64,000 nt of DNA, taken from positions 768,001 to 832,000 of the forward strand of contig OZ243972.1 in assembly GCA_965214705.1 (NCBI GenBank). The letters are read 5' to 3'. Every line of letters begins with the position of its first letter. Position 1 is the first letter of the stretch. Position numbers and translations under genes: made by a program. The notes beneath the pieces are model-generated. The model searched no databases and was not told the origin of the DNA. It was given only the letters and a program-made list of their open reading frames with translations. Shown one piece after another: positions 21,719 to 29,420 of the stretch. The DNA comes from Alphaproteobacteria bacterium (GTDB lineage Bacteria > Pseudomonadota > Alphaproteobacteria > UBA828).

Positions 21719-22114
21719 ATGAAGGGCATCATCCTCGCCGGGGGCGACGGCACGCGGCTCTTCCCGATCACCAGTGTGGTCAGCAAGCAGCTCCTGCCCG
21801 TTTACGACAAGCCGATGATCTACTACCCCCTCAGCGTCCTGATGCTGGCGGGAATCCGAGACATCCTGGTGATCACGACGCCACAGCAGAGCCGAAACTT
21901 CCGAGACTTGCTGGGCGACGGCAATCAATGGGGCCTTGCGCTGCGTCATGCCGTGCAGCCGAGCCCCGACGGGCTCGCTCAAGCCTTCCTCATCGGCAAG
22001 GCCTTCATCGGGGACGATACCTGTGCCCTCGCACTCGGCGACAATATCTTTTACGGCTACGGATTGGGGAGGATGCTTCGCCGCGCGGCCTACCGGCAAA
22101 AGGGCGCTACGGTT
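21719..22114 (+). pseudogene. rmlA: Glucose-1-phosphate thymidylyltransferase, 5' fragment
   Basis: [18 protein letters not shown]...[16 protein letters not shown]; breaks at GATV at the element boundary. Confidence 0.93.
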
Positions 22115-22344
22115 TGAACGAAGCCGCTACGCGGAGTTAGCGGCGTAGAGTTCATTCATTTCCGAGGCGTCGCGGGTGCCGTTTGTTCTGTGCGTTCGCT
22201 TCCCGGTTGCGTCAGTGGCGCTCCGCCCGTCGGGTGGCGGATCCCCAGCAGCCTCCCGATCACCAGTGGTTAGCATCGACCCCTGCGACGGACCGTCGCC
22301 GGATCGGTCCGGCGGCGCGCCGTCGCGATCCAGGGAGATCGATA

Positions 22345-23223
22345 ATGACCGGGACCGCGTGCGACACGAACACCGTCACCCCTCTTCGCCAGCGCATGGA
22401 GGAGCAGCTCCGCATCGCCAATCTGGCCGCGAGCACGTCCAAGGCCTACATCTGCGAGATCAAGAACCTGGCCAGGTACTACGACGCCTCGCCGGACGAG
22501 CTCGACGCCGAGCAGGTGCGCCAGTGGTACCTGGGGCGGATCGACAAGGGGCTCAGTCCGGGCACGACCAACGTCTCCTTCGCCGCGCTGAACTTCCTCT
22601 ACATCGACACACTCGGCTGGCCTGACCATGTCGCCGGCCTGCGCTCCCGCAAGAAGCCCGGCAAGCTGCCGCGCTACATGTCGGAGCAGGAGGTCGAGCA
22701 CCTCATCCTTGCGACACCCGACCTCCGCCACCGTGCTGCCATTGTCACCGGCTATGGCGGCGGGCTCCGCATCTCCGAGACCTTGGCCATCAAGGTCGGC
22801 GACATCCTGTCGGAGAAGAAGCTGCTGCACATCCCCTCCGGCAAAGGCGGCACCGAGAGAATGGCACCGTTGCCGGACATCGTCATCCACTACTTGCGCG
22901 TCTACTACAGGAACATCTGGCCGCGTCCGACGAGCTGGCTCTTCTACGGCGTCTCGCTCGACAGGCCCATCGCAACGGAGACCTTGCAGGCCGCCTTCAG
23001 GAGGGCGCGCGACATTGCCGAGCTCGACCGCAGCTACACCTTCCATTGCCTGCGCCATTCGGCGGCGACCCATCTCCTCGAGCGCGGCGGCGATATCGAG
23101 GTGATCCGGGACATGCTCGGCCATCGAAGCGCGAACACGACCCGTCACTACGCCCGCGTCACCGGCAAGATGTTCGAGGGCCTCGACCACCCGATCTCAG
23201 GCTTCGCAGCGTTGCGCAACTGA
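22345..23223 (+). CDS. Tyrosine recombinase/integrase
   Basis: GLRISE (R), GKGG (K), HCLRHSAATHLLE (HxxR), LGH, TTRHY (Y); RBS GGGAG. Confidence 0.93.
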   Translation: MTGTACDTNTVTPLRQRMEEQLRIANLAASTSKAYICEIKNLARYYDASPDELDAEQVRQWYLGRIDKGLSPGTTNVSFAALNFLYIDTLGWPDHVAGLRSRKKPGKLPRYMSEQEVEHLILATPDLRHRAAIVTGYGGGLRISETLAIKVGDILSEKKLLHIPSGKGGTERMAPLPDIVIHYLRVYYRNIWPRPTSWLFYGVSLDRPIATETLQAAFRRARDIAELDRSYTFHCLRHSAATHLLERGGDIEVIRDMLGHRSANTTRHYARVTGKMFEGLDHPISGFAALRN

Positions 23224-23485
23224 CGGCGCGTGGAGGCCGAACGCGCGGGCGTGGCGGAGATCTTCCGCCGCGCCGGCGCCGCTTTCCGTGAGCGCCACAA
23301 AGGGCGCATCGACGCCGCCCGGCTCAAGGTCATGGGCGCCATCGAGGCGTGCCGCACCGCCGTGCTCGGCGGCCACATGTACGCCTGCGAGGGCTGCGGG
23401 CGCGAGCAATCGCGGTAGGGAAGCGGGTTGCCCCGCTCCCCCCGCGCAGATCCGGACGTGCCCGCTAAGGCATCCGGCTCCTCCC

Positions 23486-26514: not shown

Positions 26515-28854
26515 GGTCCTTACTCACTCATCGCTGTCTCTCGCCGACCACCTCTGCCAACCGCCTTCCCCGGCCCACACGGCCGCCGCTCGCGCGGTCA
26601 CCCGGCTTTCGCCGGGCTTCAGGTACTATTCGGTTGTCCGATTGCTCGCCGCGCATCCTTTCCCATTTCGCCTTTCGGCTTATAGGGTCCGTTATCCCGG
26701 TGCCACCCGGGAACGCGGCGAGCCCTCCTGGGGTCACGTCCAGATCTTCCGTACCGTGCCGCTCGCAAACACCTTGGTGCGACGGGTGGGTAAGAACGCC
26801 TTCGCCGCCATAGTGCCGGCTCGACCTTGCCCCGTCTTTGGCCGACCGATTCATCATGGGGTGGCCCCCTCGATTACGGCCCGGTACTTCTCCGCAAGCC
26901 CTTCAGATTCCACCTCGCGGTGGACACCCTGCCTTCCGGTTGTCTTTCGACAGTGGACCAACTTAGCTCCTCCCTTGGCTGTCTCCGCCGTTTCCGGCTT
27001 CGTGCCCGTTTAGAGTTTCGCTTATCGGCTCACTCCGGCCAGTGAGGAATTACCCCCACTTTTGGATATGGCGCCCCTTACCCGAGCGCCAGTGGGACTT
27101 GAACCCACCTGATCTGGGCGCTGCCCAGCACACACTATGGCCGAGTCTGATTTCTCCATGTCGTTCATCTTCGGTTACGGACTCCTCCTTTCCTCAGCGT
27201 TCCCGCCACGACTCAGCGGGATGACATGGAGACCTCCCAGGTCCCGGTGCAGTGCGTACGTACGTGCGTGGGTTCTCTGACACCGCGGGATTCAGACCCC
27301 CCTCGCCATATCGGTGGGCCAGATGCGACCTTCGGCCAACGAAAGAGCCTCGGCATCCCGGATGATGTTTCTTTCGGTGCTCAATAGCCCCGCCCACACG
27401 CGCCCCTGTCAACGCTTGACCCTCGCCCTCGCGAGCGACGGCCCATGACTCGGGGTGGAAGTGGTGGCTCACCTTCTCCTTCCTGTTGGACTTTCACCAA
27501 CTGCACTCGCACCAGTTCGCCTGGCGCACTCCGCTCTTCAACTCCTGCCGCAACCGCCACTGCCCCACCTGCCAGGGTCTCGCCGCCAACCTCTGGAGCG
27601 AGGAGCGCGCCGGGGACATCCTGCCGGTGCCCTACTTCCATGTGGTCTTCACCCTGCCCAAGGAGGTTGCCGCCATTGCCTTCTGCAACCGCAGGGTGGT
27701 GTTCGACATCCTCTTCCGGGCCGTCGCCGAGACCCTGCGCACCATCGCCGCCGATCCCCGCCACGGCGGCATGCGCATCGGCGGCACCGCGGTCCTCCAT
27801 ACCTGGGATCAGAAGCTCCGCTTCCACCCGCACCTGCACGTGGTCGTGCCCAACGCGGGCTTCGACGTAGACAGTGGCGAGTGGAAGACGGGGAGCACCA
27901 CCTTCCTCGCCCCCGTCAAGGTCCTCGGCAGCCTGTTCCGCCGCCTCTTCCTCGAGGAGCTCGCCCGCGCCCACGGCCGGGGGGACCTGGAGTTCCACGG
28001 CACCCTCGCCCACCTCGCCAATCCCGGCGAGTTCCACGCCACGCTTGCCGCCGCCCGGGCCAGGGACTGGGTGGTCTACGCCAAGCGGCCCTTCCGCGGG
28101 CCTGAGCAGGTCTTCCGGTACCTCTCGCACTACACGCACAGGATCGCCATCTCCGACAGCCGCATCGTCTCCTTCGACGGCGAGACGGTCTCCTTCCGCC
28201 ACCGAAAGCCCAAGGCGCCGGGGCAGAGAAAGCCGCGCTACGGCATCGCCACCGTGAGCGCCGACGAGTTCATCCGCCGCTTCCTGAGGCACGTCCTGCC
28301 GGACGGCATGCACCGCATTCGCTACTTCGGCATCCTCGCCAACGGCTGCCGCGCCAGCACGCTGGAGAGAGCACGCCAGGCTCTCGGCGCCCTCGGCTGC
28401 GCCGCCCCCGAGGGAAGCGTGGACGGCGCTCGGGCCGAGCCCGACGAAGAGCCCGAGATCGGCACCGCGCCCGTGGCCTGCCCCCACTGCGGCGGCGTCA
28501 TGCGCCTCGTCCGCGAAATCCGCCGCCGCCATGAGCCCCGCTCGACGCGCGGCCCGCCGGCGCTGCCGCCGACCCACAGGGGGAAACCGTGAGACGCCCG
28601 CTCGCTTCGGCCCCGCGCAACGGCGCCAAAGCGCCGACGCACGACCGAACCTGTCTCCGCTTGAGCCGGGCTGACAGCCCTCGGCTCACACCCCGCTCAG
28701 TCCTCGCAGCGTGCGCCCGCATGCCTGCCGAAAGACCGGCGCGAGCGTCGATTTTATGCGCAACTCTGCTGCCGGTGGATGCCGCCTGACGCTGACATCA
28801 GCGCACTTTCCACATAGCTCAACTTCGCCTCTCGTGGCCCGCGGCTTCGTTCAA

Positions 28855-28896
28855 AAGGGTTGGGCAGGCTCTCGAGAGAGAGCCTGCCCAACCCTT
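28855..28896. repeat. Perfect 19-bp stem with GAGA loop at the right end of the IS91-like element
   Basis: AAGGGTTGGGCAGGCTCTC-GAGA-GAGAGCCTGCCCAACCCTT. Confidence 0.9.
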
Positions 28897-28901
28897 AACC
28901 T

Positions 28902-29420
28902 TTCGCGTACCCGGTTCGCGATCCGGAGCGTTACGGCGTCGTCGCCTTCGACGCGAGTGGCCGCGCGACCGCCATCGAGGAGAAGCCCCGGCAACCGCGC
29001 TCCCGATGGGCGGTTACGGGGCTCTATTTTTACGACAACGACGTCATCCGCATCGCCGAAGAGATCGAACCGAGCGCCCGCGGAGAATTGGAGATCACCG
29101 ACGTCAACCGGCGCTATCTCGATCGCGGCGACTTGCGAGTCGAGCAGTTGGGCCGAGGATTCACCTGGTTCGACACCGGGACGCACGACAGCCTGGTGGA
29201 GGCTTCGAGCTTCGTCCACACCATCGGGAAGCGCCAGAACCAGTGCATCGGCGTTCCGGAGGAGATCGCATACCAAAACGGCTGGATCGACCATACGGAG
29301 CTCGCCGCGCTCGGACATCGTCTGCGCCGGAGCAGCTACGGCCAACACCTGTTGCGGCTTGCCGGCGAGCTCGACGGGAGCGATGCCGCTGTCCCAGAGC
29401 CGTATTCCAACGCTCGATGA
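28902..29420 (+). pseudogene. rmlA: Glucose-1-phosphate thymidylyltransferase, 3' fragment
   Basis: FAYPVRDPERYGVV...IEEKP...AVTGLYFYDN...SARGELEITDVN...WFDTGTHDSL. Confidence 0.93.

Follow-up and report, generated by a model that had tools for sequence, protein, structure and literature searches.

A stack of mobile elements inside rmlA: an IS91-family element, a predicted group II twintron and a MITE

In the 64,000-nucleotide stretch of an alphaproteobacterial genome analyzed here (the window), an rmlA gene is very probably interrupted by a genuine stack of mobile elements, built up in an IS-saturated genome by an insertion sequence, a twintron that homed into it, and then a MITE together with a pentanucleotide expansion. 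From the outside inwards, the order is rmlA, an IS91-family element, an antisense group II intron, a same-strand group II intron and the MITE. The first-pass annotation had proposed this order and placed the ends of each layer; in-silico excision and copies lacking each layer bear out the order, and all four boundaries proved correct at single-base resolution, except that a 2-nt TT leaves the IS ends ambiguous. The layers match multi-copy elements of the same genome at 99-100% identity, so that chance matches are not a concern. The search for free copies that had been suggested for ordering the events returned multi-copy matches to the layers, with the MITE and a 5-bp expansion in the outer IEP both private to the window copy.

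Architecture of the nest in rmlA

Table 1. Features of the nested locus, by position in the window
Feature	Coordinates	Strand	Description
rmlA 5' part	21719..22113	+	codons 1-131 and first two bases of codon 132; Pfam NTP_transferase 1-129 of 245, E 4.8e-38
IS left arm	22114..23408	+	tyrosine recombinase ORF 22183-23223; first 60 codons of transposase, from 23230
Outer intron 3' part	23409..24934	-	IEP after codon 9; D5/D6 at 23409-23482; RVT_1 and GIIM on ORF 23486-24697
Outer-IEP frameshift	24711..24730	-	(CAGCG)x4, against x3 in three other copies; private to window copy
Inner intron 3' part	24935..25242	-	IEP C-terminus, D5, D6; ends ...CCCGAC; colinear free copies
MITE	25243..25409		167 bp; terminal inverted repeats AAGGCTTATCCC; within inner IEP
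Inner intron 5' part	25410..27133	-	starts GTGTGCTGGGCAG at 27133; EBS1 loop ACTATGG, intron 320-326; IEP start codon 26514
Outer intron 5' part	27134..27529	-	GTGCG at 27529; D1-D4 RNA 27494-27271 (RF02005); IEP ATG 27159; first 9 IEP codons
IS right arm	27530..28900	+	remaining transposase (to 28592) and terminal hairpin; Zn_Tnp_IS91 50-90 of 90
rmlA 3' part	28901..29420	+	NTP_transferase 201-243 of 245; in frame with 5' part

Joining the two rmlA parts in silico (21719-22113 and 28901-29420) yields an open RmlA frame of 304 residues, 292 of which are identical to the intact RmlA of the congener L007, which itself scores 475 bits on TIGR01207 (cut-off 360.65). The empty site in three congeners (L007, L008 and L009) reads GCGCTACGGT/TTTCGCG, with flanks 90-94% identical, and corresponds base for base to the left flank of the IS in the window followed by its right flank. 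These empty sites show that the IS inserted without a target-site duplication, as is typical of the IS91 family.

Without its inserts, the IS is 2,666 bp long (arms of 1,295 and 1,371 bp, together spanning 22114-28900). The left arm matches Pfam Phage_integrase, Phage_int_SAM_4 and positions 1-48 of 90 of Zn_Tnp_IS91, and the right arm matches Y2_Tnp (E 2.1e-54); their junction was verified on intact IS copies. The 413-aa transposase of an intact copy scores 382.5 bits on NF033538 (cut-off 125) and carries both Pfam domains, Zn_Tnp_IS91 and Y2_Tnp. It thus combines the N-terminal zinc-binding domain and the Y2 HUH-type catalytic domain of IS91-family transposases, the two halves of which are found in the window. 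About 90 other copies match both arms at 99.9-100% identity, the left arm being 100% identical to many of them, and one head-to-tail tandem pair is present in the genome. IS91 elements transpose by a rolling circle and follow the tetranucleotide target rule GTTC/CTTG; in 66 copies of the present IS, the first base of the right flank is T in 47, the second base is T in 56 and the third base is G in 32. Elsewhere, matches at 70-81% identity were found in five of the 18 congeners searched, near full length in just two of the five.

The outer intron (27529..23409, minus strand) lies antisense within the transposase gene, between the two CxxC motifs of the zinc-binding domain, and runs from GTGCG to CGAT. 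Intact IS copies read ...GCGAGCA/TCCGCTC... across this site, and excision of the intron gives the 413-aa IS91-family transposase. The intron scores 172.1 bits on RF02005 (cut-off 49), and its D5/D6 region 36.1 bits on RF00029 (E 2.5e-4), under the gathering score of 40. Its MFE fold contains D5 and a D6 with a bulged A, and its termini follow the 5' GUGYG and 3' AY of group II ribozymes. The IEP of this family scores 341 bits on TIGR04416 (cut-off 300) and has no endonuclease-domain match, and a sister copy from which the inner intron is removed in silico has an open ORF of 489 aa. In the window copy no intact outer IEP was found, as the inner intron interrupts the ORF and the 5-bp expansion shifts its frame; Logan contigs of three runs (X1, X16 and X18) hold just the 5-bp-shorter form. 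The assignment to a group II family stands, and the window copy is defective. EBS/IBS pairing with the IS site gave no clear candidate, the best being a 6-mer with two G-U pairs. Since the intron is antisense to the transposase, it is not spliceable from the transposase mRNA, and the window IS copy would therefore rely on transposase from other copies.

The innermost layer has perfect terminal inverted repeats of 12 nt and is flanked by the 8-bp duplication TGATCGGG (25235-25242 and 25410-25417); its excision restores a 436-aa inner IEP. The genome holds 24 full-length copies, together with seven copies of a 1,211-bp IS1595-family element (182 bits, cut-off 75) that has the 15-nt terminus and the 8-bp duplications in common with it. 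The element is thus a MITE: short, non-coding, bounded by terminal inverted repeats and a target duplication, present in many copies and accompanied by an autonomous partner with the same ends. Known IS1595-family elements and MITEs likewise produce 8-bp duplications. As the two share only their termini and the interior of the MITE is unrelated to the IS, we infer mobilization by the IS1595-family transposase from the ends. Overall, the expectation that excision restores each enclosing frame holds for RmlA, the transposase and the inner IEP, and fails for the outer IEP, which the CAGCG expansion leaves frameshifted.

A predicted spliceable twintron

The inner intron (27133..24935) lies on the minus strand, the strand of the outer intron, begins with GTGTG and ends with GAC. 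It splits the outer IEP after codon 9, between the first and the second ATG (MEKSDSAIV/AMK...). Inner-less relatives of the outer intron are contiguous across the site (...CATCGCT/ACTATGG...), and the joined ORF starts MEKSDSAIVAMK... Because the inner intron is on the strand of its host and sits between the first two ATGs of the host IEP, the pair is a predicted spliceable twintron like those reported from Thermosynechococcus. The idea that each layer disrupts its host thus has to be given up for the inner intron.

Its RNA has a D5 with a 34-nt helix, an AGC triad and a 2-nt bulge, followed by a D6 with a bulged A. RNAalifold on the D5/D6 region of the window copy and 31 relatives supports 29 pairs, nine of them with compensatory changes; one D5 pair occurs as GC in 14, UA in nine and CG in eight sequences. 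No Rfam model, that of D5/D6 included, hit an intact inner-intron copy at E<=0.1, indicating an RNA atypical for the Rfam seed, and the window copy returned just RF02001 (21 bits, E 0.5). Intron positions 320-327, ACTATGGC, are a perfect complement of the final 8 nt of the exon. Among 65 relative loci, 59 preserve the pairing of the EBS1 hexamer with the exon, two of them through compensatory changes, which identifies an EBS1-IBS1 interaction. The bases recognized by EBS1 (ACUAUGG), CCAUAGU or CCGUAGU, encode the I/V-V of a motif conserved at the N-terminus of IEPs.

On TIGR04416 (cut-off 300), the intact 436-aa inner IEP reaches 383.8 bits, and it has the RVT_1 and GIIM domains of an RT/maturase; in the window it is cut by the MITE and the GIIM match is lost. 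It is 30% identical to the outer IEP and belongs to a different lineage. Its best solved relatives are IIC reverse transcriptases, namely the GsI-IIC RT (219 bits) and 7uim (217 bits). Like the inner intron, group IIC (class C) introns have a small IEP with RT and maturase domains only and a specialized target. However, group IIC introns are described with a short pairing plus a hairpin and carry a CGC triad in D5, compared to the 6-8 nt exon pairing and the AGC triad found here; the inner intron is therefore not assigned to group IIC.

Order of events and integrity of the assembly

We propose that the nest formed stepwise. First, the IS91-family element with its upstream tyrosine recombinase entered rmlA, truncating RmlA at codon 132. 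Second, the outer intron would have retrohomed to a recurrent site in the transposase gene; four IS left arms stop at this site and the genome contains three complete IS::twintron composites, the homing mechanism being that expected of the intron family. Third, the outer intron most likely arrived already carrying the inner intron. Last, the MITE, probably moved by an IS1595-family transposase, interrupted the inner IEP in its maturase region, and the pentanucleotide repeat in the outer IEP also expanded. The resulting window copy is a dead end that could be mobile solely through proteins from sister copies.

The third step bears on the earlier picture of a chain of four events, which becomes one of probably three insertions. 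The inner intron is present in all five close copies of the outer intron, and its allele 570G, a single polymorphic site, occurs in all IS-borne copies compared to four of the 14 other copies covering that position. This occupancy and this one site make it probable that both introns came in together as a single twintron composite. There is a lesser but appreciable chance that they homed here in two separate events, the outer first and the inner later, since the inner intron is highly active. Its 21 copies in this genome are 99.9-100% identical; 12 are at the same codon of outer-family introns, three follow D1-D4 RNAs of other group II introns, and the remaining six have no recognizable host intron upstream. 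It occupies 12 of 16 outer-family introns, including seven of 11 diverged ones, a pattern read in Thermosynechococcus as recent independent insertions (PMC2882425). The inner intron is absent from four outer-family introns despite a good target, so that inner-less outer introns do exist and move. The full occupancy of close copies and the shared allele argue against this and for a composite arrival.

Whether the composite reached a resident IS is addressed by the IS alleles. The three IS::twintron composites differ at the IS-polymorphic positions 1720 (G/A), 1771 (C/G) and 2198 (G/A) of their right arms, which favors separate homing into resident IS copies. It is unlikely that an IS already bearing the twintron was mobilized in trans and entered rmlA as a 6.6-kb composite: its ends are intact, about 66 copies could provide the transposase, and complete composites are at hand, but shared alleles would then be expected at the three positions, although recombination between IS copies could blur them.

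Homing and chance have different shares in the nest. Repeated 24-mers make up 23.5% of the genome, which holds about 93 IS copies, and 16 of 66 IS copies and six of 27 MITE copies are flanked by repeated DNA on both sides. The nesting of the first and fourth layers is therefore what chance predicts for a genome with 18-24% repeated DNA. The second and third layers reflect site-specific retrohoming to recurrent targets, not chance, with the mechanism taken from the intron family. In addition, the locus C1:4022010-4038504 contains the same IS>intron>intron core plus four more insertions, so that the nest in the window is not unique and deeper ones exist in this genome.

Such repetitiveness also raises the question of an assembly artefact, in which a plain IS lies in rmlA and the twintron, the MITE or both were threaded in from other repeat copies. 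The near identity of both IS arms to other copies would permit this, and no short-read contig spans the locus, the contigs at the left rmlA/IS junction reaching 26-28 nt into the IS, under the 31-letter bar. Contigs of four runs show MITE-less and intron-less joints only, which is expected because majority forms win in contig building. However, all junctions have the exact form of a biological insertion: the MITE is flanked by an 8-bp duplication, the introns end at known homing sites and the rmlA flanks match the empty site. The window copy also carries the MITE insertion and the CAGCG expansion, which lie about 500 bp from each other and are both private to it. Moreover, the genome was assembled into three contigs despite its repeats, which would imply long reads. 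We thus regard an artefact as highly improbable.

Relatives of the inner intron and comparison with known systems

Exact junction matches were found at 20 sites in other genomes, with a search pattern that fixed seven exon bases by construction. The titles of these genomes comprise Paracoccaceae, Alphaproteobacteria, Bryobacterales, Longimicrobiales, Singulisphaera, Desulfobacteraceae, Gammaproteobacteria and Planctomycetales. The motif S[DAE]xxI is in frame at 19 of the 20, and RF02005 lies upstream on the same strand in 14 of 18 scanned loci. In metagenomes, surveyed with an intron-only pattern, [SA][DE]xx[IV] is in frame in 52 of 74 upstream flanks, compared to 37 of 3,691 random GT-ending positions on the same contigs. 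Where at least 700 nt of upstream sequence is available, 24 of 38 loci have a same-strand D1-D4 match (RF02005 in eight, RF02003 in seven, RF02001 in five and RF01999 in four) and the other 14 have no recognizable host intron upstream. For 17 loci, sequence is available on both sides: an IEP match follows just downstream in 12, and only three of the 17 junctions are open for at least 100 codons.

Relatives in several phyla and in metagenomes thus occupy the same codons in the IEPs of other introns, within the [SA][DE]xx[IV]-V motif near the N-terminus, so that the inner intron is very probably a specialist parasite of introns. More tentatively, it may represent a widespread lineage of parasites specialized on group II introns of several ribozyme classes, with EBS1 fixed on the IEP motif and the host IEP dependent on splicing. 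An EBS1 fixed on these conserved codons would allow such a lineage to invade several ribozyme classes in many phyla, and, sitting between the start codon and the remaining ORF, the inner intron would make synthesis of the host IEP require its own splicing. We consider it quite unlikely that the cross-phylum pattern reflects only horizontal transfer and descent of whole twintrons. The single host type RF02005 at most genome loci fits such spread, and the genome search pattern contained exon bases, but the intron-only pattern returned hosts that represent at least four Rfam D1-D4 families and differ in N-terminal sequence. In this genome, moreover, inner copies 99.9% alike sit in host introns about 73% alike, and ORF-less inner derivatives occur at the same codon. 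In the literature searched, no group II lineage specialized on other group II introns is described. If the lineage reading is true, bacterial twintrons would be not rare but systematically missed, because intron pipelines drop loci with two IEPs.

The IS has known counterparts, as ISfinder lists an IS91 subgroup with an upstream tyrosine recombinase. Known elements of this kind likewise have a zinc-binding and Y2 transposase and no target duplication, and a Porphyrobacter plasmid has the same annotated recombinase-transposase gene pair. Compared to its kin, the IS here has multiplied in a burst to about 93 copies within a single genome. In Sinorhizobium meliloti, the group II intron RmInt1 is reported to reside in ISRm2011-2 (PMC1802570). 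Here, by contrast, the intron is hosted by an IS91-family element. The intron is antisense to the transposase gene, in contrast to the orientation of RmInt1 in ISRm2011-2, so that splicing cannot rescue the IS.

In Methanosarcina acetivorans, group II introns home repeatedly and site-specifically into group II introns, up to five deep, and such nests provide perpetual homing sites, as stated in a later account (PMC4424553, summarizing Dai & Zimmerly 2003). That case is archaeal and involves related introns and no coding exons, whereas the present nest comprises four element types inside a paralogue of a housekeeping gene. The closest parallel is provided by the twintrons of Thermosynechococcus elongatus, for which Mohr, Ghanem & Lambowitz (2010, PMC2882425) place TeI3 inside TeI4, in the outer IEP ORF between the first two ATGs. 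According to the same study, there are, as here, several twintron copies per genome and ORF-less derivatives; other introns of that genome have an insertion sequence as their target, and an IS has entered the ORF of one intron. The inner introns of T. elongatus are described there as ORF-less derivatives of the same lineage within one genome. By contrast, the inner intron here encodes its own IEP of a different lineage and has relatives across phyla in hosts of at least four Rfam D1-D4 families.

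The rmlA locus and its nested elements

The window spans C1:768001-832000 of a 7.92-Mb genome (G000; three contigs, C1, C2 and C3). BLAST of positions 21600-29500 against this genome revealed that rmlA is split by an IS91-family insertion sequence (IS), the two arms of which form a 2,666-bp repeat. The genome holds 66 uninterrupted copies of this IS (at least 97% identity); counted by ends, there are 89 left and 93 right. Its products are a 346-aa tyrosine recombinase and a 413-aa IS91-family transposase, and a Porphyrobacter plasmid is annotated with the same two genes. The orthologous loci of three congeners (90-94% identical) have the empty site, GCGCTACGGT/TTTCGCG, which equals the window flanks joined exactly; thus, the IS inserted without duplication or loss. 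The rejoined frame encodes 304 aa, 292 of which are identical to the intact RmlA of a congener locus (L007; 475 bits on TIGR01207). As C3 carries two rmlA-like loci of 80-84% nucleotide identity to the window, one with a frame open over the 313 codons covered, we infer that the rhamnose pathway is not necessarily lost despite the split gene. These paired loci (C3:436602-437403 and C3:461627-462428), which lie 25 kb apart, have identical BLAST statistics against the window, and a recent segmental duplication is suggested.

Coordinates of the features in and around the nest
Feature	Position	Strand	Match	Remark
rmlB	19703-20764		TIGR01181, 450 bits	dTDP-rhamnose cluster
rmlD	20774-21661		TIGR01214, 261 bits	dTDP-rhamnose cluster
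Split rmlA, first part	ORF from 21719		First half of nucleotidyl-transferase domain	After rmlD in dTDP-rhamnose cluster; site of nest; stop TGA 22115-22117
Split rmlA, second part	Frame closing at 29420		End of nucleotidyl-transferase domain	
IS91-family IS	22114-28900	Genes plus	Transposase NF033538, 382 bits; Zn_Tnp_IS91 and Y2_Tnp domains	Arms 22114-23408 and 27530-28900
Outer group II intron	27529..23409	Minus		5' GTGCG, 3' CGAT
Outer intron RNA	27494-27271	Minus	RF02005, 172 bits	
Outer intron D5/D6	23482-23409	Minus	RF00029, 36.1 bits, E 2.5e-4, under gathering score	
Outer IEP start	ATG 27159	Minus		
Inner group II intron	27133..24935	Minus		5' GTGTG, 3' GAC
MITE	25243-25409			167 bp; termini AAGGCTTATCCC; 8-bp duplication TGATCGGG
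CAGCG units in outer IEP	24711-24730			Fourth unit present

Across the 66 intact copies, the left end of the IS reads TTGAACGA, except that three begin with CT or AT, not TT. The right flank has T at position 1 in 47, T at position 2 in 56 and G at position 3 in 32 of these copies. The junction hints at either a 2-nt overlap or a target similar to the element's own end. One head-to-tail tandem pair is also present (G000:C2:643960-649295). In a search of 30 relatives, five of the 18 congeners have matches at 70-81% identity, near full length only in two congener genomes (G005 and G017), and plasmid searches found only distant IS91 relatives.

The innermost layer, the MITE, is absent at this site from every other inner intron copy that covers the position. 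It has 24 full-length copies in the genome, and shares a 15-nt terminus with a 1,211-bp IS1595-family element (seven copies; NF033547, 182 bits) that also makes 8-bp duplications. In-silico removal of the MITE and one duplication copy regains a 436-aa intron-encoded reverse transcriptase/maturase (IEP) of the inner intron. The first-pass annotation had described a four-level nest in rmlA, which is borne out by the repeat BLAST, the empty sites, the uninterrupted relatives and the 8-bp duplication. Its claim that excision restores each frame holds for the 304-aa RmlA, the 413-aa transposase and the 436-aa inner IEP, but not for the outer IEP of the window, in which a fourth CAGCG unit shifts the frame. 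Each of the three sister copies has only three such units, and in-silico removal of the inner intron from one of these copies yields an open 489-aa outer IEP.

Among the Logan contigs of the short-read runs, none spans the nest, and a DNA-type search of sequencing runs showed the stretch in no run registered as RNA. At the left rmlA/IS junction, contigs of three sequencing runs (X1, X16 and X18) extend 26-28 nt into the IS, below the 31 letters set as the bar for junction support. The contigs show the IS joint without the intron and the inner-intron joint without the MITE, as expected because many other copies exist. Summed contig depths, which are not copy numbers, place the IS at roughly 40-140x its flanks, a loose fit to ~93 copies.

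Insertions in the transposase gene of a repeat-rich genome

Intact IS copies read GAGCA/TCCGCTC at the site of the outer intron, and the window has 4,121 bp between those bases. The insertion cuts the zinc-binding domain of the transposase between Pfam positions 48 and 50; since the IS genes run along the plus strand and the intron along the minus strand, the transposase could not be rescued by splicing. The intron site terminates four IS left arms, and both arms are present in three composites. In a fourth copy the 5' exon is unrelated, and this copy resembles a recombinant. The three composites disagree at IS positions 1720, 1771 and 2198, sites polymorphic in 23-26 of 93-94 copies, which favours independent homing events, each into an IS copy already in place, over a single composite that transposed. 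Pairing of the outer intron EBS with the IBS of the IS site gave weak candidates only.

A second 5' exon recurs among copies of the outer intron; it ends in GGAGTGGGAGCGGA and has GGAGT and GCGGA in common with the IS site (copies at G000:C1:2015463, C1:365870, C3:1780418 and C3:2993820). One copy joins this 5' exon to an IS 3' exon, and intron copies may therefore have recombined. The genome also contains five copies of a group II intron that has the outer-intron RNA type, lacks an ORF and measures roughly 640-670 nt (locus L015, G000:C1:421200-422400; RF02005, 168 bits; D5/D6 on RF00029, 32.8 bits).

The same segment is hit by an unrelated element, a 1,649-bp IS110-family element with 18 full-length copies (NF033542, 174 bits). 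Fifteen of the 18 lie at one transposase-gene position, CCGCTCTTCA/AACTCC, and one more has the IS on one side only. The insertions are uniform in orientation and lie 11 bp from the outer intron site, corresponding to 27539/27540 of the window (e.g. locus L005, G000:C1:1661200-1663100). Given this distance, the sequences indicate that two unrelated RNA-guided elements target the same zinc-finger coding segment of the IS91-family transposase. The twintron, namely the inner intron within the outer one, and the IS110-family element offer a natural system for competition among RNA-guided mobile elements.

Repeats are abundant in this genome, where 23.5% of 24-mers occur at least twice and 13.7% at least five times. 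The 0.7-Mb C2 is the repeat-richest contig, with 20.5% of 24-mers at five copies or more, and the genome measures 7.9 Mb compared to 2.8-6.3 Mb in the 18 congeners sampled. Repeated DNA borders both flanks of 16 of the 66 IS copies and six of the 27 MITE copies, so the first layer (IS) and the fourth (MITE) are as chance would give here. The deepest nest (C1:4022010-4038504, 16.5 kb; locus L004, G000:C1:4021900-4038700) carries four further insertions in the core of IS, intron and intron. Further-invaded copies of this core also occur at G000:C3:1608235-1616534 and C3:2982884-2993825; the inserts in these cores include the IS110-family element, a 1.68-kb element (25 copies), a 2.03-kb element (22 copies) and inserts of 4.5 kb and 3.7 kb, and none of the three loci contains the MITE. 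In turn, two IS copies lie within outer-family introns (G000:C1:1868330-1871275 and C3:2191904-2196037), with the IEP frame continuing into the IS left end; parasitism between the IS and the intron family is thus mutual.

The inner intron and its lineage

Where the inner intron is missing, outer-intron relatives are uninterrupted across the insertion site. The inner intron follows the second base of codon 9 of the outer IEP (MEKSDSAIV/AMKPANN), and thus is located between the first and second ATG. Intact copies encode an IEP of 436 aa (TIGR04416, 383.8 bits) with just 30% identity to an outer-family IEP, and a domain search found no endonuclease domain in either. Intron positions 320-327 (ACTATGGC) complement the last eight exon bases perfectly. 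An intact copy has no Rfam match at E<=0.1. Group IIC introns have the D5 triad CGC; the inner intron, with a predicted D5 triad of AGC and an exon pairing of 6-8 nt, was rejected as a member of that group.

Among the 21 inner 5' ends in the genome, 12 occupy the same codon of outer-family introns, three follow other group II D1-D4 RNAs at a distance of 235-249 nt (RF02005 in two cases, RF02003 in one), and six have no recognisable host intron. Conversely, 12 of the 16 outer-family introns contain the inner one, and the four empty ones have good targets. The outer intron has five close copies, each with the inner one inside, and the inner allele 570G is found in all IS-borne copies and in four of the 14 other inner copies covering the site. 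From this occupancy and shared allele, we propose with moderate confidence that both introns arrived at the IS as one unit. The reading of the first-pass annotation, a chain of hyperparasitism, is partly supported: the nesting stands, the two introns probably arrived together, and layers 1 and 4 are chance-like. Beyond this genome, one congener of the 30 relatives searched has the inner intron, at 90-95% identity, and two Cupriavidus plasmids carry a 765-nt inner-type fragment that is uninformative on insertion context.

One genome per species was searched for exact matches to 13 intron bases plus seven exon bases. This revealed 20 stretches on 17 contigs, with titles naming Paracoccaceae, Alphaproteobacteria, Bryobacterales, Longimicrobiales, Singulisphaera, Desulfobacteraceae, Gammaproteobacteria and Planctomycetales. 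Outside the seven exon bases fixed by the query, 19 of the 20 loci encode S[DAE]xxI in frame. A same-strand RF02005 match lies upstream in 14 of 18 scanned loci and RF02001 in two. Full-length identity of these relatives is 68-90%, and two host ORFs are open over more than 520 codons after in-silico excision. Five ORF-less derivatives of 871-920 nt (L022, L025, L026, L033 and L035, on public MAG contigs) are present, and such derivatives are located at this codon of the IEP in genomes of Bryobacterales and Longimicrobiales. One of them, L022, has three RF02005 matches within 8 kb.

A metagenome search with an intron-only pattern gave 103 stretches, 80 of which are listed and analyzed here. For the 74 listed loci with at least 32 nt upstream, TAGT ends the exon in 67 and [SA][DE]xx[IV] is in frame at the junction in 52. 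On the same contigs, the motif occurs at 37 of 3,691 random GT-ending positions and at 48 of 530 other TAGT positions, the latter control being inflated because these contigs contain unoccupied intron sites. Where at least 700 nt upstream was available (38 listed loci), a D1-D4 match on the same strand precedes the junction by 78-592 nt in 24, distributed over RF02005 (8), RF02003 (7), RF02001 (5) and RF01999 (4), and the other 14 have no D1-D4 match. With enough sequence on both sides (17 listed loci), a group II IEP match directly follows in 12, and the reading frame is open for at least 100 codons in three.

The EBS1 hexamer, part of an intron loop, pairs with the exon in 59 of 65 loci with a detectable hairpin, and there are two compensatory cases; EBS1 ACTATG accompanies CATAGT at 31 loci and CGTAGT, through a G-U pair, at 22. 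Domains D5 and D6 have covariation support from the window and 31 of 36 candidate 3' ends; five loci (L020, L033, L060, L068 and L106) were left out because their 5' end and putative tail are atypically spaced, and one misaligned row (L021) was retained.

Comparison with known nested introns

The nest itself belongs to known kinds, and is ordinary for this genome, a tidy textbook example. It is unsurprising because IS-rich genomes stack elements, and introns are known both in IS and in introns. RmInt1 resides in an IS (PMC1802570), and an IS200-family element hosts introns in Thermosynechococcus (PMC2882425). Moreover, the commonest neighbours of group II introns are other group II introns, and their closeness to transposases is also in print (Waldern et al. 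2020).

By contrast, the inner lineage is the part of the finding that merits follow-up. In the literature searched, we found no ORF-containing lineage targeting conserved N-terminal IEP codons across ribozyme classes and phyla. Two further papers, Dai & Zimmerly 2003 and Simon et al. 2008, may be relevant to priority, and the supplementary tables of Waldern et al. may contain examples. A retroelement that targets a conserved coding motif of its own kind would have its homing site renewed at every spread of the host. Such a lineage may throttle host introns, and bears on the regulation of intron populations and the multiplication of introns inside introns.

Twintrons are already known in bacteria and archaea (PMC4424553; PMC2882425), although reviews and primary papers term bacterial ones rare (e.g. 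PMC4424553), and two survey pipelines state that twintrons are dropped or missed. In the present analysis, a single exact pattern recovered this twintron junction from several phyla, and most of the metagenome stretches lie at the same codons of IEPs whose host introns represent four ribozyme families. Similar to the present intron pair, the Thermosynechococcus twintrons have the inner intron between the first two ATGs of the outer IEP, and it was noted that translation of this IEP could begin at the first AUG if the inner intron has been spliced out, and otherwise at the second (PMC2882425).
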